Shown here: piece by piece, positions 4,294 through 52,219 of the stretch | Position numbering within the stretch: the stretch's first letter is position 1 | How the letters are laid out: every line of letters begins with the position of its first letter | DNA from: Candidatus Cloacimonadales bacterium | Lineage (GTDB): Bacteria; Cloacimonadota; Cloacimonadia; Cloacimonadales; JAIOQZ01 | Direction of reading: 5' to 3' | Assembly (NCBI GenBank): GCA_963665815.1 | Contig: OY762463.1 | Location: 1,184,001 to 1,248,000 of the forward strand | Length of the DNA stretch: 64,000 nucleotides | Translations under genes and position numbers: made by a program | Notes under the pieces: model-generated | What the model was told of the DNA's origin: nothing | What the model saw: only the letters and a program-made list of their open reading frames with translations | Database searches by the model: none

Positions 4294-4338
4294 GTGGCTG
4301 TATGAATATTAAATTATATTAAAGGACACAGAAAACTA

Positions 4339-4423
4339 TTGACTTATTGAGCATAATTCATTCATTTAGGTATTGATACTAAAATCCATGTAATCTGTGA
4401 GGACTGATGAAATATCGCATTTT
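4339..4423 (+). promoter_or_regulatory. Duplicated promoter/leader/RBS block, copy 1 (begins TTGACT)
   Basis: 85 nt with 3 mismatches to 8152-8236; both copies precede the first gene of a propeller cassette. Confidence 0.8.
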
Positions 4424-5333
4424 CCTGTTACTCCTTTTCTGCCTGTTCCTGTTCTCCTGCTCTGACAATAAAAGTAAAGTCTTGAAAATGGAGGATATAT
4501 TCAAACTGGAGTCTGCAATAGAATTAAAAGACATAGATGAAATCCCAGTTTTTACATTTACTGAATTCGGTTTTTTTGCTATGCAAACTCATTCCAGCAG
4601 AGTGTCAAAGTTTCTGAATGATGGAACTGAGGAAAAAGTGTTTGGTAAGAAGGGAAAAGGACCTGGGGAGTTTGAGTGGGGCAGATTTTTGTCTTATTCT
4701 GAAGACATTCATACACTTGGAATATATGATATTCCAAATTTTAGAACGTTGTATTTCAATGATTCGTGCGAGTTTCAGAAACATGACTCTCGTCCAATTT
4801 CCGGGATTCCATACTTCAAACTCAGGAAGAATGATATTGAAGTATTCTCATTTTCTCAATTTCCTGATAATAATGGATTTTGGAAAAATAATATTGCTGT
4901 AAATGACTCTATCATTTTAAGTAATAATGAGAAGACAGATTCACAAATACCGGAGAAGTACTATCAATACAGCTACAATTCAGGCAGAATCATAATTTTG
5001 AAACCAGATGGAACAGACTTCGCGTTATATAATTACGACTTGGAAAACAGGAAGCTGAATCGCATAGAAACAGGTTCTAATAAGCATTACACAGTTAACA
5101 TATCAAGTATCAATAACGTACACACTATTGGAAAATACATCATAATAGAAGCCAGTAACACTGAAGATCGCCTGGAATACATCTTTATGAAGCAAAAAGG
5201 CAAGTACATCGGTACAATGGAGTTTGAAGAGGATTACAAAGCGATTTACGGTGTATATAACAACCACATTTATGTTGTTGAATCTGATGACTCCGAAGAA
5301 TGGATAATAGTACACAACTATATTCTGAAGTAA
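4407..5333 (+). CDS. 6-bladed beta-propeller (NHL-like) lipoprotein, paralog 1
   Basis: Lipobox LFSC; FGKKGKGPGEF motif; beta-rich, about 310 aa. Confidence 0.8.
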   Translation: MKYRIFLLLLFCLFLFSCSDNKSKVLKMEDIFKLESAIELKDIDEIPVFTFTEFGFFAMQTHSSRVSKFLNDGTEEKVFGKKGKGPGEFEWGRFLSYSEDIHTLGIYDIPNFRTLYFNDSCEFQKHDSRPISGIPYFKLRKNDIEVFSFSQFPDNNGFWKNNIAVNDSIILSNNEKTDSQIPEKYYQYSYNSGRIIILKPDGTDFALYNYDLENRKLNRIETGSNKHYTVNISSINNVHTIGKYIIIEASNTEDRLEYIFMKQKGKYIGTMEFEEDYKAIYGVYNNHIYVVESDDSEEWIIVHNYILK

Positions 5334-5345
5334 AATGGATCACTG

Positions 5346-6269
5346 ATGAAAGCGAAATACATTGTTCTACTATCGATATGCCTGCTGCTGTTTGCCTGTT
5401 CTGACAATAATAGCAAGGTCTTGAAAATGGAAGATATATTCAAACTGGTGAACACTGTCAAGTTAGAAGATACCGATTACTATCCACAACTTATTATTAC
5501 AGAGACTGGTTTTATTACATTTCAAGCTGACTTGAGCAAATTCACAAGATATTTAGATAATGGTGAAATTGTCAGTTCCTTTGGGAAGAAAGGAAAAGGT
5601 CCCGATGAAATAGAATTTGGAAAGAAGTATTATTATTCGAGTGATGAGGATATACTGGGAATCTTTGATGTTATGAACTACAAAATGACGTACTTTGATA
5701 AAACCGGATGTGTAGTTGAGCAGAAATCAGTTCATTTATCAGGAATACCATTTAGAGAATTAAAGATAAATGGTGTTCTCGTAAAAACACATACGAATTT
5801 CCCGAACGAAGACAATAAGTGGCAAAACACAATAACTATTAATGACTCACTAATTCTATCAAATGAGGAAACTCTTAGATCAGGGGATGTTACCGAACTG
5901 AATTATTATTTCTTCAGTTACAATAATGATAAAGTCTATATTGTGGCACCAAATCAAGGTGACTTTGATTTATATGCATACGATTTAATTAAGAAGAACT
6001 TGAAACATCTGAATGTAAAAGGTGGAAATAGTCATAAACAGATTGATATCCATAACATTATTGTAATCGGCAAATATATCATTTTGCCTGTTACCAATGA
6101 TGATGATTCCGGTAGTTGGCTTTGCTATAAGACTAATGGTAGATATGTTGGTGAATTGATTTGTGAAAATGAAAATGATTTTATAGTGAACTCAAATAGC
6201 AAGAATATGTACGTTGTTTCTACTGACAAAGAAGAAAACTATTCAGTAAAAATATACACATTGAAGTAG
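5346..6269 (+). CDS. 6-bladed beta-propeller lipoprotein, paralog 2
   Basis: Lipobox LFAC; FGKKGKGPDEI; clearly similar to paralog 1. Confidence 0.8.
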   Translation: MKAKYIVLLSICLLLFACSDNNSKVLKMEDIFKLVNTVKLEDTDYYPQLIITETGFITFQADLSKFTRYLDNGEIVSSFGKKGKGPDEIEFGKKYYYSSDEDILGIFDVMNYKMTYFDKTGCVVEQKSVHLSGIPFRELKINGVLVKTHTNFPNEDNKWQNTITINDSLILSNEETLRSGDVTELNYYFFSYNNDKVYIVAPNQGDFDLYAYDLIKKNLKHLNVKGGNSHKQIDIHNIIVIGKYIILPVTNDDDSGSWLCYKTNGRYVGELICENENDFIVNSNSKNMYVVSTDKEENYSVKIYTLK

Positions 6270-6282
6270 TAAAGGATCACTG

Positions 6283-7230
6283 ATGAAAGCTAAATACTTT
6301 AATCAATTATTACTAATATTTGTATTATGCTCATGCAATTATAGAATGCAGGAGAGGAAGCTTGCTTTTGATATAATCACAGAATTCAATCTCCCAGAAA
6401 TAATTAATCCTGATGTTTGTGCTACGAAAGATGAAATATTTGTAACAAATTTGGCAACTCAAACTGATGGAAAAATTTATACCTATAACTATCAAGGAGA
6501 TTTATTATCAGAATTTGGAGGAAAAGGTGATGGACCTGATGAGTTCACACATATTTTCAATATATTCTATGACTATAATAAAAATCTACTAGGAATATAT
6601 GATTTTTATGGATTCTGTATAAAGTACTATAATGCAAAACATGAATTGGTCATGAAAGATGTTCTTGACAAAACTATGTTTAATAAGGTTTATACGGCAG
6701 AATCAAGTCTTCAAAGTCACTTATTTCCAAAAGATAGCTCAGATAAGAAGCTATACTATTTACACGACTTACATCTGGAAAATGGAAATAAAATATCCCT
6801 TAAGGAAAAAGAGTTCTTATCAAGTGATGACTTCAGCATCTTCAAAGAATCAACAAGAATTGCTGCCAATATGGATTTCTTTTTCATCTGGGATTTAAAT
6901 GGCAATGAAACCTCTGTTGAGCAATTCGACGTGGAGGGTAATCCTGTTAAGAAATGGGATTTGAAGATGCTGCCAAGATATCTGGAAAACATTAAAAAAT
7001 ATAACAGAATACATGCAGGAGATGATTTCATTCTATACGATTTTCAGGACAATAATGATGTTCACTTCTATGACGCCTATGATTTCAAGAATAAATATCT
7101 TGGCACCATTAGAATGAGCAAGCCTGAAGACACAATCCCGTTTGTTTTTAAGGATAAGATTTTCATGCTGGAATACAATGAACAAGACGATGAAGATTTC
7201 TATGTATGTAAAATACTGAAAATGAAGTAA
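6283..7230 (+). CDS. 6-bladed beta-propeller lipoprotein, paralog 3
   Basis: Lipobox LCSC; FGGKGDGPDEF. Confidence 0.8.
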   Translation: MKAKYFNQLLLIFVLCSCNYRMQERKLAFDIITEFNLPEIINPDVCATKDEIFVTNLATQTDGKIYTYNYQGDLLSEFGGKGDGPDEFTHIFNIFYDYNKNLLGIYDFYGFCIKYYNAKHELVMKDVLDKTMFNKVYTAESSLQSHLFPKDSSDKKLYYLHDLHLENGNKISLKEKEFLSSDDFSIFKESTRIAANMDFFFIWDLNGNETSVEQFDVEGNPVKKWDLKMLPRYLENIKKYNRIHAGDDFILYDFQDNNDVHFYDAYDFKNKYLGTIRMSKPEDTIPFVFKDKIFMLEYNEQDDEDFYVCKILKMK

Positions 7231-7249
7231 AATCAACAAGGAGACATGC

Positions 7250-7606
7250 ATGCATACACTCATAAAATTCATTGCAATGGTAATAATTCAATCATCAGTA
7301 CTTTATCTTATAACAAATAAATTGATGATGATAAGCAACAGCCCTTTCGTTAAATCTTTAATCGTAACTATTATAATAGCCGCAATTGATTCCGGAGTTG
7401 CATTATTAGTAGGAGATCCTCATGGATTTCATGCCGGAATGTTTGCAAAAATTGCGAACTATCTGACAATTATACCGGCTATTCTAACTTTCAAAATTGC
7501 TTATGATCTTACAGTGCAACAGCTGTTTTTGTTCATTGTAGGTTACAGGATTATTCTGTTTGTTGTTGGTTTTACAATCATCCCCATAACAGCAGCAATA
7601 TATTAA
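7250..7606 (+). CDS. Small integral membrane protein (about 4 TM), unknown function
   Basis: AAGGAG RBS; hydrophobic segments; 19 nt after paralog 3. Confidence 0.7.
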   Translation: MHTLIKFIAMVIIQSSVLYLITNKLMMISNSPFVKSLIVTIIIAAIDSGVALLVGDPHGFHAGMFAKIANYLTIIPAILTFKIAYDLTVQQLFLFIVGYRIILFVVGFTIIPITAAIY

Positions 7607-7702
7607 TATAACATGATCGGTTCGGTTTTTTTGCCCTTCCACACCGTTCTCAGAGTGCAAAAAAGCAAATATTTTATAGTCAAAAGTAATTTATGACGTA
7701 GG

Positions 7703-7815
7703 TTTTCCCGATTCTTCGGGACTCAACCGACTTAACGTATTGATAGATATTGATATGATCGTTCCCTGACAGACTGTGTTGCACCTGACGGCGCTCGAAA
7801 AGCTGCCTGACAAAT
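7703..7815. repeat. REP-like composite repeat (family A plus CCTGACGGxGCTCGAA unit)
   Basis: 7722-7769 equals 10161-10208 with 1 mismatch; 7778-7815 resembles 10325-10361; inverted relative to 4212-4293. Confidence 0.8.
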
Positions 7816-7961
7816 CTCTTTTTACAGCAGAACTTGTGCAATTTAGTTAGACATAGCTGTCAGTATCTGTATTTCCTCTTTGTCACTTAAAGTCGTTATA
7901 GGCCTACATTAAGTCTTTTCAATTGCAAATTTGTGTAATCGTTCTATCTGTTGATAAAAGT

Positions 7962-8100
7962 AAATTTTCCCGTTAAGAAATCCTGAAGCCTTGGAAGGAT
8001 TTCAGGGGAGATTTATGGTTCCAGCTTGCTGGAAATACATTTTGATAAAGAGTGCCTTTCTTTTGCTTCGTTTTCTTTGGCACCAAAGAAAATGAAGAAA
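7962..8100 (+). repeat. 139-bp MITE/REP-like element, family B, copy 1
   Basis: About 90% identical by hand alignment to the reverse complement of 10423-10561; internal palindromes TTCCAGCxTGCTGGAA and CTTCGTTTTCTTTGG..CCAAAGAAAATGAAG. Confidence 0.9.
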
Positions 8101-8151
8101 CAAATATCAGGAGTTAAAAATATAAAATGGATTGAAAGATGTAGAAAACAG

Positions 8152-8236
8152 TTGACTTATTGAGCATAATTCATTCAATCAGGTATTGATACTAAAATCC
8201 ATGTAATCTGTGAGGACTGATGAAATTTCGCATTTT
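8152..8236 (+). promoter_or_regulatory. Duplicated promoter/leader/RBS block, copy 2
   Basis: Direct repeat of 4339-4423, offset 3813 nt. Confidence 0.8.
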
Positions 8237-9173
8237 TATTATTCTCCTTCTCTGCCTGCTGCTATTTGCCTGTACAGAGAAGAAACAAAATCCAACATTG
8301 GATGTTAAACAAATCAGTTTATTCAAAGTACCCGAACTGTATAAATCCCCGGTTGTATGTGCTGCTAATAATAAAATAGTATTCACTGACGCTGAGGATG
8401 GGGTTATTTATGTTTATAATTATGCTGGAGAGAAACTTAAATCCTTTGGCAATAAAGGACAGGGTCCCGGTGAATTTCAAGGGGTATATCATATAGTCTA
8501 TCAGGAGAATCAGAATCTATGGTACTTTTACGATCTATACCATTGGAAAATCCATGTTTATTCTGATACTTTCGATTACATCAAATCTGAGAAAACATCT
8601 TCTATAATTGCAGGAATGAAACCGTGGAAAGATAATGTTCTTATACAAGTAAGAATTCCGGTAAGTGTCGATGGATCACGAATTTTTGACGACAGGATAA
8701 AAGTGTTCAACCCAAAAGGTGAAGAAAAGACTATCAGGAACAAGCTGCTGAAATCAATAACAGATGTTGAGTTTATGCTAGAATACGGCTTGATGTTTGA
8801 TACGAATTCCAACAAGCTGTTTGTTCTGGATAAACAGCAGAATACTTTCTCCGTAGAAGAGTACACAGACGAGAACACAAAAATCAAATGGGAAATGGAA
8901 GACAACATAACTGTAATAGATAATGCGAAAATATCGGGTATCTATGCAGGAAAAGACTTTATCATTATAAAAAGGCTTAAACCTGAAGATGAGGAAGATA
9001 CATACTATACTTATTATGAGTTCTATGATTTCAATCAGCACTATCTGGGTAAGCTAATACTGAATAATAAAAATGAGTACATAATAGATGTGTACGAGAG
9101 CAAACTGATTAAACTTGTGAAAGACGAAAATGGTGACTACTCATGCAGTATTCTGGAGGTAAAGTTATTGTGA
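8220..9173 (+). CDS. 6-bladed beta-propeller lipoprotein, paralog 4
   Basis: Lipobox LFAC; FGNKGQGPGEF. Confidence 0.8.
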   Translation: MKFRIFIILLLCLLLFACTEKKQNPTLDVKQISLFKVPELYKSPVVCAANNKIVFTDAEDGVIYVYNYAGEKLKSFGNKGQGPGEFQGVYHIVYQENQNLWYFYDLYHWKIHVYSDTFDYIKSEKTSSIIAGMKPWKDNVLIQVRIPVSVDGSRIFDDRIKVFNPKGEEKTIRNKLLKSITDVEFMLEYGLMFDTNSNKLFVLDKQQNTFSVEEYTDENTKIKWEMEDNITVIDNAKISGIYAGKDFIIIKRLKPEDEEDTYYTYYEFYDFNQHYLGKLILNNKNEYIIDVYESKLIKLVKDENGDYSCSILEVKLL

Positions 9174-10111
9174 CAGTAGTAAGAAACTTCGCATTCATTT
9201 TTATTTTAATGTTCGTAATTTCCGGCTGTTCAGATAGACGTAATTCTGATGGAAAGCTATCTATTTTGCCAGTTATCAGCTTTGAGATAGAAGGAGCAGG
9301 CAGTTCTCCAATTGTACATGCATCAAAAGATTATATTTTCATCAGTGATATGCTTGATGGAATTGTAAATGTATATAACTATGAGGGAAATAAAATCAAA
9401 ACCTTTGGCAGTAAAGGAAAAGGACCGGGTGAGTTTTTGTCAGTATCGATGTTATGCCGGTTAGAACCATTAGATGAATTAGTAATATATGATGTTTACC
9501 AGAAGAGACTTTCATTCTTCAATAAAGAGTTTGAACTCAGCAATACCGTAAATATTCAGGAATACCTTTTGAGTATACAGCCACTTCAGAACAATTTACT
9601 TTATGTTACCAGAAAACCTGCAGAAAATGGAATGATGAGTGGTTTCAACGATTTAGTAACTATGAAAAATATTAGTTCTGATGAAAAAATCATAACTAAG
9701 AAATTTCTGCCTGCTTCTGATGATGTTTTAACTTATGTGGACAAAGGTCTGCTGATTGATACAAACTCAGAGAATTTGTTCGTTCTGAATAGAGGCGATG
9801 ATTTCGTAATTGAGCAGTATGTTAACGGAACAAACAAGAAAATCTGGAAATTGAATAAAGAAAAAATAAACATTGAGTTCACAAAACTAAATTCTATTCA
9901 TTGTGGTAGTAATTTCATCATTTTGAATTTGGTAAAGGCAGATAACTCTATGAACTATGCATTCTTTGATTTCGACGAACAATTTCTGGGAGAACTCAAC
10001 ATGAATACAGAAAATGAGTATATTATTGATGTACACAAAAACAAACTTATTAAGCTTGTAACTGATGAAAATGGTGATTACATCTGTAGTATTATGGAGG
10101 TAAAGTTTTAA
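9170..10111 (+). CDS. 6-bladed beta-propeller lipoprotein, paralog 5
   Basis: Probable GTG start at 9170 overlapping the upstream TGA, with a GGAGG RBS; lipobox ISGC; FGSKGKGPGEF; C-terminus close to paralog 4. Confidence 0.8.
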   Translation: MTVVRNFAFIFILMFVISGCSDRRNSDGKLSILPVISFEIEGAGSSPIVHASKDYIFISDMLDGIVNVYNYEGNKIKTFGSKGKGPGEFLSVSMLCRLEPLDELVIYDVYQKRLSFFNKEFELSNTVNIQEYLLSIQPLQNNLLYVTRKPAENGMMSGFNDLVTMKNISSDEKIITKKFLPASDDVLTYVDKGLLIDTNSENLFVLNRGDDFVIEQYVNGTNKKIWKLNKEKINIEFTKLNSIHCGSNFIILNLVKADNSMNYAFFDFDEQFLGELNMNTENEYIIDVHKNKLIKLVTDENGDYICSIMEVKF

Positions 10112-10147
10112 GTCACAGCACTCCTGGAATGACTGGCAACTTTTTTA

Positions 10148-10361
10148 CCTTTTGACTCAGCTCAACCGACTTAAAGTATTGATAGATATTGATATGATCG
10201 TTCCCTGAGCGGAGTCGAAGGGGAATCAGTTTTAAGTGAATGAAGCGACAAAAATCACTTATTTACTCAGTTTGTCAGAAATCACAGCAACAAACCAGCT
10301 TACTTCTCACTTTTAATTTACAGGTCGCTCCTGACGGAGCTCGAAGAGCTGCCTGACAAAT
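10148..10361. repeat. REP-like repeats (family A: CCTTTTGACTCAGCTC...GTTCCCTGAGCGGAGTCGAAGGG; second unit at 10325-10361)
   Basis: Matches to 4212-4293 and 7703-7815. Confidence 0.75.
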
Positions 10362-10422
10362 TTCATCGAAATCCGTGTATAAATACTTAATTCACCGCAG
10401 ATAAATTAAGATAAATATAATA

Positions 10423-10561
10423 TTCCTTCATTTTCTTTGATGCCAAAGAAAACGAAGCAAAAGAAAAGCACTCTTTTTTTAGATGTATTTCCAGCATGCT
10501 GGAACCATGAATATCCCCTGAAATCCTTCCAAGGGTTCTGGATTTCTTAACGAGGAAATTT
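10423..10561 (-). repeat. 139-bp MITE/REP-like element, family B, copy 2 (inverted)
   Basis: Reverse complement of 7962-8100. Confidence 0.9.
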
Positions 10562-10615
10562 ATTATACAAGTAAAAGAGAGAAAATACAGGTCATGATCT
10601 CTACATTATCCCCCC

Positions 10616-10653
10616 AAAAAAAGCTCTGCCTGACCGAACAGTCAGGCAAAGCT
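10616..10653 (-). terminator. Intrinsic terminator of the ABC operon
   Basis: TGCCTGAC/GTCAGGCA stem with an A7 run (U-tract on the minus strand). Confidence 0.8.
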
Positions 10654-10670
10654 CTATCAAACATCAACTG

Positions 10671-12071
10671 CTACCTTACGTCATATTTTCTCAAGACAAA
10701 CAGACTTGTGGCAAAAATCAGCAGATTGTATAGAATCAGCAAAGCGAAGGGGCTCACAGCATGCTCTATTCTATCTGCAACAGTAGACTCTGCATATTCA
10801 GAACTAACGAGTTTTTCAGGATGTTCAAAAGCTGCGGTTGTGAATGTATTCCTTCCATCACTCCATGCCCAGTTATAGAATTGATGCAGACTGTTCTCAT
10901 CTTCTTCATCCTGTTTCTTAGCTAGTTCTGACACCTCATCAAGTTTATTGTAAAACTGTTTTTTCTCATTCCTGTATCTAAGGAATCCTATATCAAGGAT
11001 TGAGTTACCGATCCTCCTGAGAAGTTCATAAGGAGACAAAATGGAAAGTTTTAATATCGTTTTCGTCTGGGCTTCAGCATCTCTCAGATACTTTTCCCAC
11101 TCTGCCATTTTCAGAGCATTGGCAGCTTTGACAGCTCCGGATCTCAAACCCTTTTCAACATACATATTACCGGCAACATAGTGCTCATTCTTCTCTTTAT
11201 CATCGTACTTATCACTCCAACGATTAAACTCAGCATTAAAAGCTTCATTCATACGAGTCAAGTATGCTCCAATTGCATCAACTCTGGTTAACTGATTACC
11301 AACAAGTATCGCAGTCTTTGGTATTATCACAATAAACAACAGCCAGCAGACCAAAGCCTTAACAACTGCCGAGTTAGCATTCTTTGCCATGGATATAAGT
11401 ATCCCAAGCAGTATAAAAAAGCTTATATAAATTATTGAGACAAGGCTCCATACGAGTGACTCTAAGATCAGAGAGCCGTTAATCCCTTTATTGAGAAATG
11501 TCCAGATAATAAGTGATAGAACCTGTCCCGCTAGTATTGTAACAAAAAACAGACTGAGAAGACTTGCATACTTAGACACAAGTATCTTATAGCGTGAGTA
11601 TCCTGATATAATCAGCAATCTCAGTGTAGAATTCTGTTTTTCCTCCGATATAACATTATAACTGAAAATGAGAGCTGAAAAACTGCACAAGAAGCCAATA
11701 ATGAAGAACCAGTTGATCCTCTGTTTATAGTCATCATAATTGTGAACAGCTTCTACCTGACGATAAGTAAGTCCACTGGAAAAACCTACAGGATACGATT
11801 CATCTCTCTGAATCACCATAGAGCTCAATGGCTTTCTCATGTAAGTCACTTTTGCATTTGCAATCATCCATGACAAATTTCCCGAACGCTCCGAAGCGCT
11901 ATTCTGAAGAATTTTATACTTGTTATTGTATTTATCAAGATCATCCCTGTACTTGATTGAATTGGAGAAAGCTCCTACAACAAACAGGACTATCAGGATT
12001 GAAAAGAATATCTGAAATTTCAGTTCTTTTACCAGCAGTAAACAGTCTTTTTTGTATAAATTATAAAACAT
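10671..12071 (-). CDS. ABC-2-type transporter permease with large extracytoplasmic loops
   Basis: ISEEKQNSTLRLLI..YSRYKILVSK motif; multiple TMs; ends KYDVR. Confidence 0.85.
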   Translation of the reverse strand: MFYNLYKKDCLLLVKELKFQIFFSILIVLFVVGAFSNSIKYRDDLDKYNNKYKILQNSASERSGNLSWMIANAKVTYMRKPLSSMVIQRDESYPVGFSSGLTYRQVEAVHNYDDYKQRINWFFIIGFLCSFSALIFSYNVISEEKQNSTLRLLIISGYSRYKILVSKYASLLSLFFVTILAGQVLSLIIWTFLNKGINGSLILESLVWSLVSIIYISFFILLGILISMAKNANSAVVKALVCWLLFIVIIPKTAILVGNQLTRVDAIGAYLTRMNEAFNAEFNRWSDKYDDKEKNEHYVAGNMYVEKGLRSGAVKAANALKMAEWEKYLRDAEAQTKTILKLSILSPYELLRRIGNSILDIGFLRYRNEKKQFYNKLDEVSELAKKQDEEDENSLHQFYNWAWSDGRNTFTTAAFEHPEKLVSSEYAESTVADRIEHAVSPFALLILYNLLIFATSLFVLRKYDVR

Positions 12072-12082
12072 CTTTCTTCCCC

Positions 12083-13669
12083 CTATCTGATATCAAACTT
12101 GTACATCAGGTAATAACAGACAATAAGCAGCACGATTATAATCATCAGGAACTGCAGCAAAATTCTGAACGTCCTGCTCAATGATTTGCCTGCACTTAAG
12201 CCTTTAAACTCATACTTAGGCAGGTCAGGGAACTTGAAGTCAAATCTTTCCAATGAGTTAAAATGTGCCAGGCAAACATCTGAATACTCTTGCTGAAGTC
12301 GAGACTTATCTTCCTGTGTCATCTCATGCCCAAGTTTTTTGATGAACTCAGCAGCAAACTCGTTCACATCATAACATACTTCCCCCGGTTCCATCATTGC
12401 ATAATACTCATCACTGTACAACCAGTTATTCTTGATTGCCAAATCAATAAGTCTGTTCCTGAGAGAAACTCCATCCCGCATAAAGTTGATCATATCATCG
12501 ATATCATATCCGGAGTTTTTCTGTGCTGCATCTTCAAAAAGAGCAATTGGTGATGCAAACAAATATAAAGATTTACTTCTCTCCTGCTTTTCCATCAACA
12601 AGAACAATTCCTGCTGTATGTTCTCCATTTTCTGCATCAGAGGATAATAGTCTTCATAAAACACTTTAACTCTGAGTGTCCTGTAATCTAAAACACTGCG
12701 AGTTGTGTACAGGATTGTATTTGTCAACCCTCTCCAACCATTCGAGTTATTATACCAATAAAAGAAGTCTCTTGGTTTATCCTGTAGCCGTTCAGAGCGA
12801 TCGAAATTATCAATTTCTTTCTGAAGCTCTCCAATTTCTTCTCTCATAGCTCTTTGCTGCTTCATTCCGTTTATTTTGTTTGAGAAAAATGAATACCCAA
12901 CAGGTACAAGCACTAACAGGAAAATCCAGATTGCCAGTACCAGAACAAGCGATTTTGCTGTTCTTTTGAAAACAAGTGAGCAAATCGTTCCAATCAAAGC
13001 AAAACATAAAACAAACAGGAATGCAAAAAGCAGATAGTTGACAAGACTAACATAAAAGTATGATGTAATATAGCTTGAATGTTTTATCACCAAATAAAGC
13101 ACACTTAACAGAGTAGGCACCAGTAATACCGTAAATGCGAACAGTGATATTGTCAGAATCTTTACAATCAGAAAGGTGAATTTCTGCACAGGATATGTGA
13201 ACATAAGCCTCAGAGTGCCGTTTTCTTTCTCTCCGTTAATTGTATCGAAGGCTATCAGCAGCACAAACAGTGACAGAAAAAAGGTTATCAGGAATGTTAC
13301 ATCCATATCAAACTTTGTGGGATGAACAGGATTGATTGTCTGTGAAAATGCTGAAGGTCTGGTTATTGATTCAAACATTCTGACTTCAATAATATTTCCG
13401 TATTTATGAGTAATTCCCTCATGAAAGACACTGAACAATTGCGGTGGAATTACAGCCGGTATCATCAGGTAACTATAGTTCTGAGATCTTCCAATTTCCT
13501 TCTGCAACATCTCATTATCATTTATATACTGCTGCTGTCGCTGATTGAACTCACTTAGACGCAGAGAGAATGTAACTCCAAACAGCACCATGAAAATACA
13601 AATCGACCAGATTACTCTATTACTCCTCAGAAGCCTTTTGTACTCGTGTTTTACCAATAGACTGAACAT
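12083..13669 (-). CDS. ABC-2-type transporter permease with large extracytoplasmic loops (paralog)
   Basis: FDTINGEKENGTLRLMFTYPV motif; ends KFDIR. Confidence 0.85.
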   Translation of the reverse strand: MFSLLVKHEYKRLLRSNRVIWSICIFMVLFGVTFSLRLSEFNQRQQQYINDNEMLQKEIGRSQNYSYLMIPAVIPPQLFSVFHEGITHKYGNIIEVRMFESITRPSAFSQTINPVHPTKFDMDVTFLITFFLSLFVLLIAFDTINGEKENGTLRLMFTYPVQKFTFLIVKILTISLFAFTVLLVPTLLSVLYLVIKHSSYITSYFYVSLVNYLLFAFLFVLCFALIGTICSLVFKRTAKSLVLVLAIWIFLLVLVPVGYSFFSNKINGMKQQRAMREEIGELQKEIDNFDRSERLQDKPRDFFYWYNNSNGWRGLTNTILYTTRSVLDYRTLRVKVFYEDYYPLMQKMENIQQELFLLMEKQERSKSLYLFASPIALFEDAAQKNSGYDIDDMINFMRDGVSLRNRLIDLAIKNNWLYSDEYYAMMEPGEVCYDVNEFAAEFIKKLGHEMTQEDKSRLQQEYSDVCLAHFNSLERFDFKFPDLPKYEFKGLSAGKSLSRTFRILLQFLMIIIVLLIVCYYLMYKFDIR

Positions 13670-13678
13670 AGCCTCTCC

Positions 13679-14416
13679 TTAATCTGCTTCAACAGATAAT
13701 GAGTTTTCTATTCTGCCTTCCATATAGTCTATATACAGATTTTCCAGATTTTCAAACTCGAATTCATCACGTCTTCTTGAAAGCACAAGTTCACCATCCT
13801 TCATAATACCTATCTGGTCAGCCAGTTCTTTAGCTCTGAATATGTTATGAGTAGACATCAGAACAGCTTTACCGTCTTTCTTCATTCTCAAGACCAGATC
13901 CTGAAAATCCTTTGCGGCTTTTGGATCGAGACCGGAAAAAGGTTCATCCATAAGAATAATATCAGCATCCTTAACAATTGCTATAGCAATACCTGTCTTC
14001 TGTCTCATACCCTTGGAGTAATAGCTGACCGGTTTGTTGATAAAGCTCTCCTGTAGTCCGATATCCCTGAGGATATTCTCAAGCTCGGTTCTTGATCTGC
14101 TTGTTTTGCTTAGATTAGAAAAGAACTTAAGATTTTCATATCCTGTAAAATTCTCATATAATCTGACATTCTCAGAAATATATGCAATATCATTCTTTGC
14201 TTCTCTGGAGTCCTGCACAGAGTCTTTTCCATTAATGATGATTGTTCCCTCGGTAGGTTTTATAAAACCGCAGATAAGGTTTATTGTTGTTGATTTACCT
14301 GCCCCATTCGCCCCGAGAAGCACGTAAATTTCGCCACTTTCAACGTTAAAACTGATGTGATCCAATGCGATCTTCTTGTCTTCATACCTCTTTGTTAAAT
14401 CCTTAATCTTTAACAT
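13679..14416 (-). CDS. ABC transporter ATP-binding protein
   Basis: GANGAGKST, YSKGMRQK signature, ILMDEP, H-loop. Confidence 0.95.
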   Translation of the reverse strand: MLKIKDLTKRYEDKKIALDHISFNVESGEIYVLLGANGAGKSTTINLICGFIKPTEGTIIINGKDSVQDSREAKNDIAYISENVRLYENFTGYENLKFFSNLSKTSRSRTELENILRDIGLQESFINKPVSYYSKGMRQKTGIAIAIVKDADIILMDEPFSGLDPKAAKDFQDLVLRMKKDGKAVLMSTHNIFRAKELADQIGIMKDGELVLSRRRDEFEFENLENLYIDYMEGRIENSLSVEAD

Positions 14417-14425
14417 TCTTCCTCC

Positions 14426-15850
14426 TTAATTTCGTGATAACTTCACCATGAAGTATATCAGCATTCCAAGTATTGTTATTGCCGCGAGAATCAGAATTAT
14501 ATTAAGCCAGATGTTGGACTTGTTCAAAATCTCCATTTTCAGTTCCTTATCTGACGTGAATATACTTTTACTAATATCTTTGCCCTTTGCTTTAATCCTT
14601 ACCTGATATATTCCCTGGAGTGATTTCTTATCAGGGATTATGTTGAATTTAAGCTTTTGCTCCTGCTCAGGTCCCAGCTTATCAATAAACTCAGGTTCAA
14701 TCACCTTTTCCCACCCTGATGGCATGAGCACCTCAAATGTCACATCCTTAATCACTTTCTTACCTGTATTCTTGATGCTGAATTGAGAGATTTCGAACTC
14801 TTTACCCTTTTCCTGCACAAAATACATATTGTCCAATGACAGCTCCATCTCGGCTTTGCCCACAGGAATAATCTGCAATTCACTTGATCCTGTCTCCTTG
14901 TTTTCCGAACTTAGAACATTTACACTAAACACCAGTGCTTCGTTAAACACAGATTCATCTAATTTTTCTGGAACAGATATACTTAGAGCTACATTATGAA
15001 CAGGTTCCTGAGCAGACATTGCCAGTGTTGAGATCGCAGCATTGTTCTTAGCATTAATAAAGTTGAAAGAGTAAGTTCCCGGTAGTCCTGCACAATTTAG
15101 TTTATACACCTCTCTTGAAGCTCCGAAATACTCAATTCTCAGATTGTAGATTGCTGATGCTGCAGTTTCAACTTCCTGGGAAAACACATTAGAGGTAATA
15201 ACAACAGAATGCTCCGCTGTTTTTCTCTTCAGCCACACCCTTTTCTCATCAACCTTACCTGCGTAAACTGCAGATACTGTTACAGCCTGAACATCCTTTA
15301 GCACAGAAAAATCTATTGTGTAACTTTTACCGGACAGCATTTCAGGGATATGATATTCGTAGGGTTGAGATATAATGTTCCCGGACTCATCCTTGAGCGA
15401 TACATACACATTGTATAGACTTTCAGGTCTCAGCTTCATATCTTTGAGAGTACTGATCAAATCATCTTCAAGAGCGTAAGAACCGGCTGAATTATTCCTT
15501 ATTTCCATCACAACTTTGTAACGACCTGTTTCATCTTTATATTTCTCTGCTTTCACGACAGTTATGTATGGATTTTCAAAGATTACTCCCAGCATATACT
15601 GCTGAAAATTCAGTTCATCATTCTCATACTGCAGCTTGATGTTCTCAAACTCATCTTGAGAGATGTACTTCTTCTCAAATAACTTTTGAGCTCGATTAAA
15701 TTCCTGCTCTGACTGCTCAAGCCTTTTCTTAGCTTTCTGTAATGCCAGAATACGGAACCTATCATCATTGGGATTATACTCCTGATAAGTAATTCCACTT
15801 ATGATGGACATTATTATTAAATTGATCATTAATAAAATTATTTTCTTCAT
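14426..15850 (-). CDS. Exported, C-terminally anchored protein: MFP-like alpha-hairpin plus Ig-like (NEW3/COG1470-type) domains
   Basis: Signal peptide from MKKIILL (GGAG RBS); helical hairpin at about aa 35-88; IKNTG...PSGWE...LGP Ig-like domain; C-terminal TM with a basic tail. Confidence 0.75.
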   Translation of the reverse strand: MKKIILLMINLIIMSIISGITYQEYNPNDDRFRILALQKAKKRLEQSEQEFNRAQKLFEKKYISQDEFENIKLQYENDELNFQQYMLGVIFENPYITVVKAEKYKDETGRYKVVMEIRNNSAGSYALEDDLISTLKDMKLRPESLYNVYVSLKDESGNIISQPYEYHIPEMLSGKSYTIDFSVLKDVQAVTVSAVYAGKVDEKRVWLKRKTAEHSVVITSNVFSQEVETAASAIYNLRIEYFGASREVYKLNCAGLPGTYSFNFINAKNNAAISTLAMSAQEPVHNVALSISVPEKLDESVFNEALVFSVNVLSSENKETGSSELQIIPVGKAEMELSLDNMYFVQEKGKEFEISQFSIKNTGKKVIKDVTFEVLMPSGWEKVIEPEFIDKLGPEQEQKLKFNIIPDKKSLQGIYQVRIKAKGKDISKSIFTSDKELKMEILNKSNIWLNIILILAAITILGMLIYFMVKLSRN

Positions 15851-15870
15851 TATATCTCCACCATTGATAT

Positions 15871-15886
15871 TGCATGCTGAGTGCCA
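15871..15886 (-). promoter_or_regulatory. Sigma54 (-24/-12) promoter of the ABC operon
   Basis: Minus strand TGGCACTCAGCATGCA, GG-N10-GC, 21 nt before the ATG; candidate enhancer palindrome TTGTAGATATCTGACAA at 15971-15987. Confidence 0.75.
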
Positions 15887-16058
15887 AAACATTTTTATTG
15901 TGTATTATGCGGAAAATAGAGGGTTTATAGTTAAGTTATAGCTCAGAGAAGAAATAGATACATTCCAAAATTGTAGATATCTGACAAAAAAGTAATTTTT
16001 ACACTGTCTGAACAGTTTTATGCTTGACTTTTTTTTATAAAATCTTCATATTGAATCT

Positions 16059-16204
16059 TGTTAAATGACTTTATGTAGTATGTAAGGTTTGCAATGAGTT
16101 TATTGCACTTTTGAAGTATTGGGCGTACTTCATTAACACTCCGCAAAAGGTTAATAATACATTATATAAAGTCTGGCTGTTGAATTTCAACAGCCTTTTT
16201 TTTT
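16059..16204 (+). ncRNA. Putative structured small RNA or leader (four-way junction plus intrinsic terminator)
   Basis: TTGACT-N17-CATATT promoter at 16024-16052; closing stem 16067-16084/16158-16173; three internal hairpins; terminator GGCTGTTGAA/TTCAACAGCC followed by T9. Confidence 0.6.
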
Positions 16205-16334
16205 ACTCAACCTTAAACATGTTGTTTTCAGGACTTTACTTCTTGATTTAACTAATGCTCAGTTTAACTATTAGCTTGACATTTAAACGATTTTCAAAAG
16301 CTGTGAAATCATAAATCAATTATTTAAGGAGAAT

Positions 16335-17537
16335 ATGATGCACGTATTAGTCGTTAACAGCGGATCATCATCAATTAAGTTTCAATTGCTTAATATGGAA
16401 ACACAACAACTTCTAGCCAAGGGACTTATTGAAAGAATAGGACTCCCAATGGGGAATTTTACTTACAAACCAAATGGAAAAGACAAACAAAGTTTTGAAT
16501 TCCCAATTCCGGAACACAAAGTTGGATTAAAGAAAATGCTGGAAGTAATTGTTGATCCTGAAATTGGTGTTATTGAAAAAATAGACCAGATTGATGCTGT
16601 TGGACACAGAATCGTGCATGGTGGAGATAAAATCAAATCTTCTATTATTCTCGATGATAAATCAATTAAAACAATCGAATCATTAATCCCTCTTGCACCG
16701 CTTCATAATCCTGCGAATCTTCAGGGTGTAACTGCTCTTAAAGAACTTCTTCCTGAGTCTACACCTCATATTGGGGCTTTTGATACAGCTTTTCACGCTT
16801 CAATGCCTGCTGAATCATACATCTACCCTCTTCCTTATGAAATGTACTCAGAGCATGGTATCAGAAGATTTGGATTCCATGGAACAAGCCATAAGTTTGT
16901 TGCATTAAGAGCTGCCGAAGTTCTCAAAAAAGATATTAATGACTTCAATTGTGTAACGGTACACCTTGGAAACGGTTCATCCCTTACTGCTGTTAAAAAT
17001 GGTAAAAGTGTTGATACAACTCTTGGTTATGGTACTATGTGCGGTGTTCCGATGGGAACAAGAGCCGGTGATATTGATCCTGCGATTATCCTTCACTTAC
17101 TTGAGGATATGGGAATGAGTATAGAAGAAGTACATAAAATGATCTACAAACAAAGCGGTATGCTTGGTTTGAGCGGAATATCTTCAGACCTTAGAGATAT
17201 TGAATCCGGAGCCAATGAAGGAAACGAGAGAGCTCAGATTGCTCTTGATGTACTTGCTCACTCTATAGCAAAAAATATTTGTGCTCTTGCTTCAAATTTT
17301 GAAAGACTTGATGCAGTTATCTTCACTGCAGGTATTGGTGAAAGATCACCTGTTGTCAGAGACCTTGTCTGCAAAAAGCTTAAGGTAATAAACGCTATGT
17401 ACGATGAAACAAAAAATGATTTCAAAGGTGACGAAAGAATTATCTCTGCAGATGATTCCCCAGTGAAAATCATGGTTGTTCCAACAAACGAAGAACTCAT
17501 GATTGCCCTCGATACTGTTGAACTTGCTAAGAAATAA
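16335..17537 (+). CDS. ackA: Acetate kinase
   Basis: VLVVNSGSSSIK, GHRIVHGG, APLHNP, FDTAFH, GFHGTSH, HLGNGSS, FTAGIGE, PTNEEL. Confidence 0.97.
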   Translation: MMHVLVVNSGSSSIKFQLLNMETQQLLAKGLIERIGLPMGNFTYKPNGKDKQSFEFPIPEHKVGLKKMLEVIVDPEIGVIEKIDQIDAVGHRIVHGGDKIKSSIILDDKSIKTIESLIPLAPLHNPANLQGVTALKELLPESTPHIGAFDTAFHASMPAESYIYPLPYEMYSEHGIRRFGFHGTSHKFVALRAAEVLKKDINDFNCVTVHLGNGSSLTAVKNGKSVDTTLGYGTMCGVPMGTRAGDIDPAIILHLLEDMGMSIEEVHKMIYKQSGMLGLSGISSDLRDIESGANEGNERAQIALDVLAHSIAKNICALASNFERLDAVIFTAGIGERSPVVRDLVCKKLKVINAMYDETKNDFKGDERIISADDSPVKIMVVPTNEELMIALDTVELAKK

Positions 17538-17558
17538 TTATTCTTTATACTATAAAAT

Positions 17559-17588
17559 AAAGCTGTTGGCACTGTCAGCAGCTTTTTT
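17559..17588 (+). terminator. Intrinsic terminator after ackA
   Basis: AAAGCTGTTGGCA/TGTCAGCAGCTTTTTT. Confidence 0.75.
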
Positions 17589-51583: not shown

Positions 51584-51945
51584 AACTAACCTCCGATACG
51601 TAATTTATCTTGTTAAATAATTATCTCTTTATCCAGATAAAATCAAAATATTATATTGGTGTCTTCTGTAAAGTTTAATCTTTGTCTGTCAGGGTGAAAC
51701 CATTTCAGATCTTTTACATAATTGTGAAATTTTAAGTTAGATTTTATGTAAGTAAGGTCAAAAACATATAATCTATTTCTACCTCAATTTGTATTTTCTA
51801 TAAGTATATTAAATACAACCAAGCTTGCCGAAATCTATCAACAGGCTGTTTCAGGTTTAAGTATACGATCCATTTTAATTGTTGAGATTTTAGCATAATT
51901 GGGATTTTTGACTCGATTGAGGTATTATTAAAAGCTCTCTTGTTC

Positions 51946-52219
51946 CTATTCGTATCTCAAAGCATCTATAGGATTCAGGTTTGCCGCCTTTCTCGCCGGA
52001 TAGTACCCGAAGAAAATTCCGACTGCTCCGGAAAAGCTGAATGCGGTAAGAATCACCAGAGGACTGAGTACCGTATACAATGGTGTGAATTTATCAATAA
52101 ACAAGCTTATAGCCACTGCCAGAGTAATCCCGATTATACCATCGGCCATTCATTTTCCAGTATGTATAAACGGCACCAACCAGAACTAGCATCACGAGCA
52201 TTGATATTATTTTTTTTAT
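51946..52219 (-). pseudogene. Deletion remnant: MacA-like N-terminal anchor joined to the MacB/FtsX permease C-terminus
   Basis: C-terminal [25 protein letters not shown]; upstream, in another frame, (ATA)KKIISMLVMLVLVGAVYTYWK after a GAGGA RBS. Confidence 0.75.

Follow-up and report, generated by a model that had tools for sequence, protein, structure and literature searches.

A candidate small RNA gene upstream of an acetate/propionate family kinase gene in a Cloacimonadales bacterium

Genomic context of the candidate

We analyzed a 64,000-nt stretch of DNA (hereafter the window) from the genome of a Candidatus Cloacimonadales bacterium (G000), which is a single 3.96-Mb contig of 36% G+C and 98.66% completeness. 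The candidate sits in an intergenic region of this window, with a leftward four-gene transporter operon on one side and a rightward kinase gene on the other. It is a predicted plus-strand small RNA of ~145 nt (16060..16204, putative ends), marked by its fold and by a run of identity with a congener (G001). The transporter operon encodes a 488-aa NEW3-domain/adaptor-like protein, an ABC ATPase, and two ABC-2 permeases. Its first gene, on the minus strand, probably starts at ATG 15850, which is preceded by GGAG and gives a product beginning MKKII, and not at the in-frame ATG 15892.

The kinase gene (16335..17537, plus strand; ackA) encodes an acetate/propionate family kinase (Pfam PF00871, E = 2.2e-142; TIGR00016, 472 bits against a cut-off of 293) and is followed by a terminator of the intrinsic type at 17559-17585. 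An earlier sequence-only reading of this DNA had placed ackA downstream of the candidate on the same strand. This is the arrangement we find, with the ackA ORF starting 131 nt past the T-run of the candidate's terminator. Two kinase paralogs, 47% identical to each other, occur in the genome, the second being located at G000:C1:3184751-3185932. For the copy in the window, a 71% ortholog was found in a single other genus of the family, and the second copy is similar (45-49%) to the kinases that the other relatives carry.

Directly before the kinase gene lies a separately conserved plus-strand block (16270..16334), which holds TTGACA (16276-16281) and AAGGAG and shows two differences from the congener. 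This TTGACA lacks a good -10 element at 16-19 nt spacing, and the top plus-strand sites of the block score 8/12, so that an independent ackA promoter is not evident. The heptamer GCTTGAC is common to this block (16274-16280) and to the putative promoter of the candidate (16022-16028). At both GCTTGAC sites the word TGAA(A)T is found 22 nt past TTGAC(T/A), and a count of this spacing gave no clear enrichment genome-wide.

Promoter and terminator signals

Upstream of the candidate, we recovered the promoter-like site TTGACT-N17-CATATT at 16024-16052 that the sequence-only reading had pointed out. The -35-like hexamer TTGACT (16024..16029, plus strand), part of the GCTTGAC heptamer, and the -10-like hexamer CATATT (16047..16052, plus strand) are separated by a 17-nt spacer and would place the transcription start near 16059-16063. 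The -10 element is weak, with 4/6 matches here and 3/6 in the congener, which has CAAATT. The site as a whole scores 9/12. Sites with such a score are about as frequent as chance predicts (5 against 5.1 expected in one scan, 68 against 69.4 in another), and the promoter match alone is therefore no evidence. Comparison with the congener shows an identical -35 element and a spacer kept at 17 nt, yet 7 of the 17 spacer bases differ. Retention of the -35 element and of the spacing despite changes in the spacer is the pattern expected of a real promoter.

Related sites are mildly enriched in the non-coding DNA of this genome: TTGAC-N16-18-TANNNT occurs 81, 60, and 69 times, compared to 26-61 sites at other spacings. 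The regions upstream of the tmRNA, RNase P RNA, and 6S RNA genes, which we inspected for promoter typing, revealed no clear consensus.

The 3' end of the candidate is formed by an intrinsic terminator (16175..16204, plus strand), matching the strong terminator with nine T's that had been described. Its 9-bp stem, with five G-C pairs, and 3-nt loop read GGCTGTTGA-ATT-TCAACAGCC (16175-16195), and the T9 tract follows at 16196-16204. The predicted energy of the hairpin is -13.8 kcal/mol. The congener retains this terminator with one change in the loop (16185) and T7 instead of T9. Intrinsic terminators are commonly used in G000, as one stands after the kinase gene and a near-identical hairpin with T7 lies elsewhere in the genome, 3' of a small ORF. 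We also searched upstream for a plus-strand gene that the terminator could serve. The nearest plus-strand ORF of at least 90 aa is 10594..10878, with none closer to the candidate, which bears out the earlier statement that no such coding sequence precedes it and indicates that the terminator serves no protein gene.

Predicted fold

The minimum-energy fold of the plus strand contains the 13+3-bp closing stem and the three hairpins of the sequence-only reading. The closing stem is formed by a 5' strand (16067..16083) and a 3' strand (16157..16173), both on the plus strand. Thirteen base pairs between 16067-16079 and 16161-16173, with G-U pairs at 16075/16165 and 16078/16162, are followed by an A/C mismatch (16080/16160) and by three additional pairs (16081-16083/16157-16159), one of which is a further G-U. 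Within this stem, hairpin 1 (16084..16111) presents the loop AGUU on a stem of 16091-16096/16101-16106 that is extended by 16084-16088/16107-16111. Hairpin 2 (16113..16131) has a 7-bp stem (16113-16119/16125-16131) and the loop UGGGC, with a predicted unpaired probability of at least 0.9. Hairpin 3 (16132..16155), in which 16132-16137 and 16139-16140 pair with 16148-16155, has CCGCAAA as its loop and CUCC at the edge between stem and loop. All three hairpins lie on the plus strand. The loop contact that the sequence-only reading suggested between GAGT of hairpin 1 and ACTC of hairpin 3 would join 16096-16099 to 16138-16141.

The full 145 nt fold with a predicted energy of -41.5 kcal/mol and a z-score of -5.44 (none of 200 shuffles was as good), and much of this signal comes from the terminator hairpin. 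The 115-nt core alone has z-scores of -2.64 (plus strand, equaled by 0 of 200 shuffles) and -2.82 (minus strand, equaled by 2 of 200). The predicted thermodynamics of the core are thus only modest by themselves and pick no strand.

A preference for the plus strand does emerge in these predictions from the absolute energies and the types of base pairs. The plus-strand fold has six G-U pairs and an energy of -27.7 kcal/mol, compared to two G-U pairs and -22.8 kcal/mol for the minus-strand fold, in agreement with the earlier argument that the G-U pairs favor the plus strand. In the closing stem, 16 of the 17 positions pair on the plus strand and 14 of 17 on the minus strand, where three G-U pairs become C/A mismatches and the one A/C mismatch becomes a G-U pair. 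Because both genome copies are identical across the entire fold, there is no covariation, and the four-way junction is a thermodynamic prediction only.

Conservation in the congener

The genomes of G000 and G001 are collinear from position 6374 to 17588 of the window, and the main segment of this synteny (10629-17588, 7 kb) is 85.3% identical. Against this background, 16050-16184 forms a 135-nt run of perfect identity, the second-longest in ~10.5 kb of aligned synteny. Past 16184 there is the one change in the terminator loop, after which identity resumes into the T-tract, so that the candidate differs from its counterpart at 1 of 153 nt. The flanks are less conserved: 15828-16027 is only 77-79% identical, and 16205-16269 contains many changes and a 5-nt indel. 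For comparison, the tmRNA, RNase P RNA, and 6S RNA of the two genomes are 98.0%, 97.4%, and 98.9% identical, respectively. In the single available congener, the candidate block is thus as strongly conserved as the housekeeping RNAs.

Collinearity with G001 stops at 17588, just past the terminator of the kinase gene. For the DNA of the window beyond this point, the two G001 stretches that we compared (~40 kb) hold no counterpart, except for a weak, 75%-identical match to 51811-52148.

At 205 nt, the longest stretch of identity in the synteny (7001-7205) falls within ORF 6283..7230, which is one of five tandem DUF5128-like paralogs. The others are 4407..5333, 5346..6269, 8220..9173, and 9143..10111, and three of the five match DUF5128 (6-bladed beta-propeller). 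Intergenic segments at 7963-8097, 10422-10590, and 4318-4455 are repeated as well. The 205-nt run is probably attributable to recombination or gene conversion among the paralogs, and identity alone is therefore no proof of selection.

This longer run in a nearby paralogous family is one reason to ask whether the locus encodes a functional RNA at all. The identity could mark a recent recombination tract or a DNA-level site, with the fold, promoter, and terminator being coincidences of AT-rich DNA. Such an explanation would accommodate the modest z-score of the core, the chance-level promoter match, and the presence of the candidate in only two known genomes (see below). We nevertheless regard it as very improbable. 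Perfect identity sets in at the -10 element and stops within the terminator; edges that match those of the predicted gene fit selection on an RNA gene, unlike a random recombination tract. Sensitive blastn of 16052-16204 against the whole genome returned only the query itself and terminator-part matches of at most 28 nt. The candidate is therefore single-copy and represents no REP or MITE repeat, and nothing similar was found in phage, plasmid, or viral collections. Small proteins also do not provide a credible explanation for the conservation: the four ORFs present are 23-46 aa long and all have TTG starts, and the plus-strand ORF crosses the terminator and the 5-nt indel.

Distribution and relation to known RNA families

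We searched for the candidate in related genomes by sequence, by covariance model, and by a loop-anchored pattern. In 41 relatives, blastn of 16000-16340 detected the full element only in G000 and G001, and the remaining matches covered the terminator part only. A covariance model of the core gave hits in 2 of 8 genomes of the family, 2 of 151 of the order, and 2 of 151 of the phylum, in every case G000 and G001; the searches across more than 40 genomes were run with stricter filters. The loop-anchored pattern, which fixes two loops so that diverged homologs would escape it, identified four loci in genome contigs (the congener and three chance matches), five loci in metagenome contigs, none of which fits the model, and none in viral contigs. 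The phage and plasmid collections likewise contained no match to the candidate. At the kinase loci of eight relatives, the covariance model found nothing significant, the best match (E = 0.097) lying in GC-rich unrelated sequence. The search for homologs in related genomes, a check proposed together with the sequence-only reading, thus yielded the one in congener G001 only. Judging from these comparisons, the candidate is restricted, within the set of genomes searched, to a single genus of uncultivated Cloacimonadales.

Scans with the covariance models of Rfam 15 at gathering scores gave no match to any family in the whole window. A permissive scan of 15850-16400 (E up to 10) listed eight rows, all at 12-17 bits compared to gathering scores of 42-128. 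The best of these sub-threshold matches has an E-value of 2.9 at 16-17 bits, and in the FopS and McaS rows it is mostly the terminator that aligns. ARAGORN detected no tRNA or tmRNA genes in the window. The earlier view that the element matches no tRNA and no recognized riboswitch is upheld by these scans, and they provide no known family to which it could be assigned.

Several specific identities were tried and rejected. The window contains no RF00013 match that would suggest a 6S RNA, and the genome's own 6S gene is located elsewhere (G000:C1:3299165-3299342, 63 bits), as are its tmRNA and RNase P genes. A CsrA sponge of the CsrB/RsmZ type, which would carry several GGA motifs in its hairpin loops, is not indicated, as there is no GGA anywhere in 16060-16204, though the genome has a CsrA gene. 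A bacterial Y RNA (YrlA), whose Ro/TROVE partner is usually encoded next to it, was also rejected, because PF05731 (Ro/TROVE) has no matches in the genome.

A promoter-like site on the opposite strand

The minus strand carries a promoter-like site of its own, TTGAAA-N18-TATAAT (16161..16190), which matches at 11/12 positions. It is located in the terminator and closing stem of the candidate, with an A9 tract before it, and is the best promoter-like site in the 20 kb scanned. Sites of 11/12 quality number 287 genome-wide, corresponding to 0.011 expected per 150 nt. Of these, 122 fall in non-coding DNA, which makes up 10.6% of the genome, and 80 of the 122 are at most 300 nt upstream of a same-strand gene. 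The site could be a promoter of the divergent transporter operon, either as a rival to the plus-strand RNA or in addition to it.

If the minus strand were the functional one, TTGAAA-N18-TATAAT would drive the transporter operon, and the conserved block would represent this promoter together with the start of a ~300-nt 5' leader. In a hybrid version, both strands would be transcribed and the small RNA would be cis-antisense to the leader. The site is rarer and better than the 9/12 match on the plus strand, and its class is concentrated in non-coding DNA, often near same-strand genes. In addition, the intergenic region contains no other minus-strand site with 16-18 nt spacing before the operon start, and the z-score of the minus-strand core equals that of the plus strand. 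Other features speak against the minus strand. A transcript starting at ~16154 would lack 16157-16173, so that the 16-pair closing stem would have arisen by coincidence. Only when read on the plus strand do the GC-rich hairpin and T9 form a canonical terminator, and six G-U positions in the plus-strand helices turn into C/A mismatches when the minus strand is folded. Outside the conserved block, the putative leader (15893-16049) is conserved at only 77-79%. We therefore consider it unlikely that the minus strand, alone or as part of a hybrid, accounts for the conserved block. Because the minus-strand transcript would be without one strand of the closing stem and would leave the hairpin and T9 unexplained, we retained the plus-strand RNA as the main reading.

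Leader of ackA or separate gene

The position of the candidate on the strand of the kinase gene, 131 nt upstream of it, is compatible with a cis-acting ackA leader. In such a leader, transcripts initiated at the TTGACT promoter would extend into ackA whenever termination is suppressed, for instance by an antiterminator protein that binds the structured body of the RNA. The lack of an evident ackA promoter, with plus-strand sites in the conserved block scoring at most 8/12, is in line with this possibility. To look for an antiterminator, we folded the RNA with the 5' half of the terminator forced to pair upstream or with its 3' half blocked. The energy rose from -41.5 to -28.0 kcal/mol, a loss of 13.5 kcal/mol, and the core fold was unchanged; no antiterminator was found in this way. 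The 13+3-bp closing stem is of much higher stability than a switching helix, and it shares no positions with the terminator.

Sequence comparison is similarly unfavorable to a leader. The stretch between terminator and kinase block, 16205-16269, is poorly conserved and contains the 5-nt indel, and only then does the separately conserved block begin. In G002, a genome of another genus, the 71%-identical kinase ortholog lies 10 nt behind another gene and has no such element upstream, and the model has no match at the kinase loci of the eight relatives. The lack of an antiterminator, a closing stem that is clear of the terminator, and a G002 ortholog without the element argue against a switching leader, but not against protein-mediated read-through. 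Overall, a cis-acting leader of ackA seems to us quite unlikely.

The sequence-only reading had left the choice between a novel sRNA and an attenuating leader for ackA. The first is the best supported reading of the present data, and we put its chances at about even. The second loses ground for want of an antiterminator and because the ortholog in G002 does without the element.

A possible mechanism

The reading that we prefer, and that we hold to be evenly poised between right and wrong, is that of a stand-alone, genus-restricted, plus-strand small RNA gene that acts independently of Hfq. Transcription would start a few bases past the sigma-70-type promoter TTGACT-N17-CATATT and stop at the hairpin with T9, giving an RNA of ~145 nt. 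The body of this RNA would fold into a long closing stem around three short hairpins. The exposed loops, UGGGC of hairpin 2 and CUCC-GCAAA of hairpin 3, would then pair with mRNAs, possibly at ribosome-binding sites. We infer the transcription of the candidate, its ends, its in vivo fold, and this mechanism as a whole.

Regulation would most likely proceed without Hfq, for which PF17209 gave no matches in the 98.66%-complete genome under conditions in which control genomes responded. Shine-Dalgarno motifs peak 9-11 nt before predicted starts in this genome, so that a loop carrying CUCC might, in principle, cover ribosome-binding sites, and the hairpin loops are predicted to be accessible in the fold.

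We calculated the duplex energies of hairpins 1, 2, and 3 against 3018 translation start regions, which come from crude, rough ORF calls. The energies were within the range of six shuffled controls per hairpin. The ACTCC motif had been described as anti-Shine-Dalgarno-like, an idea that finds no backing here, as complementarity to start regions is not enriched over the shuffled controls. Neighboring genes had unremarkable ranks as targets (605, 2099, and 1889 of 3018 for ackA). In view of these null results, pairing through the loops is a proposal drawn from the general kind of object that the candidate appears to be and does not constitute a result.

The unenriched mRNA complementarity is also what might be seen for a plus-strand RNA with a structural role, such as a protein-binding, tRNA-like, or ligand-binding four-way junction, instead of one acting by base pairing. 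A cloverleaf-like arrangement of a closing stem and three hairpins is unusual among pairing sRNAs, most of which consist of hairpins in linear series, and conservation spans the whole body beyond one seed. We find such a role decidedly improbable, given that no ARAGORN tRNA or tmRNA, Rfam match, or Ro/TROVE gene was detected, that the RNA has no GGA for CsrA, and that the genome has its 6S RNA gene elsewhere. A distribution limited to one genus is moreover atypical of riboswitch-like or housekeeping RNAs.

A more far-reaching version would make the candidate both the first regulatory RNA described in the Cloacimonadota and a new structural class. In this version, which we think rather unlikely, a cloverleaf-like four-way junction would bind a protein or metabolite and be coupled to the acetate/propionate kinase or to the divergent ABC-transporter operon, perhaps through overlapping convergent promoters on both strands.

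Comparison with known systems

Anaerobic digesters harbor abundant Cloacimonadota, uncultivated bacteria that live as fermenters and syntrophs. Full-text literature searches turned up only unrelated papers and none on small RNAs or riboswitches of Cloacimonadota. If true, a validated sRNA beside a kinase gene for a fermentation end product would provide a first handle on post-transcriptional control in the phylum. Orphan sRNA candidates are found by the dozen in any well-studied bacterium. From its sequence features, the present candidate would be a well-formed orphan intergenic sRNA gene that matches no known family, an ordinary kind of object in an unstudied phylum.

The long closing stem with its cloverleaf-like multi-hairpin domain resembles that of YrlA and tRNA-like RNAs, but the genome has no Ro/TROVE gene and the candidate has no ARAGORN call or Rfam match. 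Like riboswitch and attenuator leaders, it places a structured element and then an intrinsic terminator ahead of a same-strand metabolic gene. Unlike them, it has no competing antiterminator, is followed by a poorly conserved 65-nt spacer and then a second conserved block, and occurs in one genus.

A link between an sRNA and acetate kinase is known from enterobacteria, in which SdhX represses ackA. This sRNA originates from a 3' UTR and requires Hfq, whereas no Hfq gene was found in the genome of the candidate, and the candidate shows no notable complementarity to the ackA start region. FopS (RF04319) of Bacteroidota, the top sub-threshold Rfam row, shares with the candidate a AAGGUUAAUAA stretch followed by a terminator hairpin, and the FCB group is taken to include both Bacteroidota and Cloacimonadota. 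This alignment reaches 17 bits against a gathering score of 56 (E = 5.1) and covers model positions 24-71 only, mostly terminator. FopS is, by its Rfam name, a paralog family, whereas the candidate is single-copy.

RsaE/RoxS of Firmicutes are Hfq-independent base-pairing sRNAs with C/U-rich loops. The candidate differs from them in having no sequence or model similarity in Rfam, in its 16-pair stem and predicted four-way junction in place of a row of hairpins, and in having a single CUCC with unenriched complementarity to start regions. Like RsaE/RoxS, it would be a stand-alone intergenic gene of similar size with its own putative promoter and an intrinsic terminator. It likewise has a predicted exposed, pyrimidine-rich loop that might contact Shine-Dalgarno sequences and adjoins a gene of central carbon metabolism.
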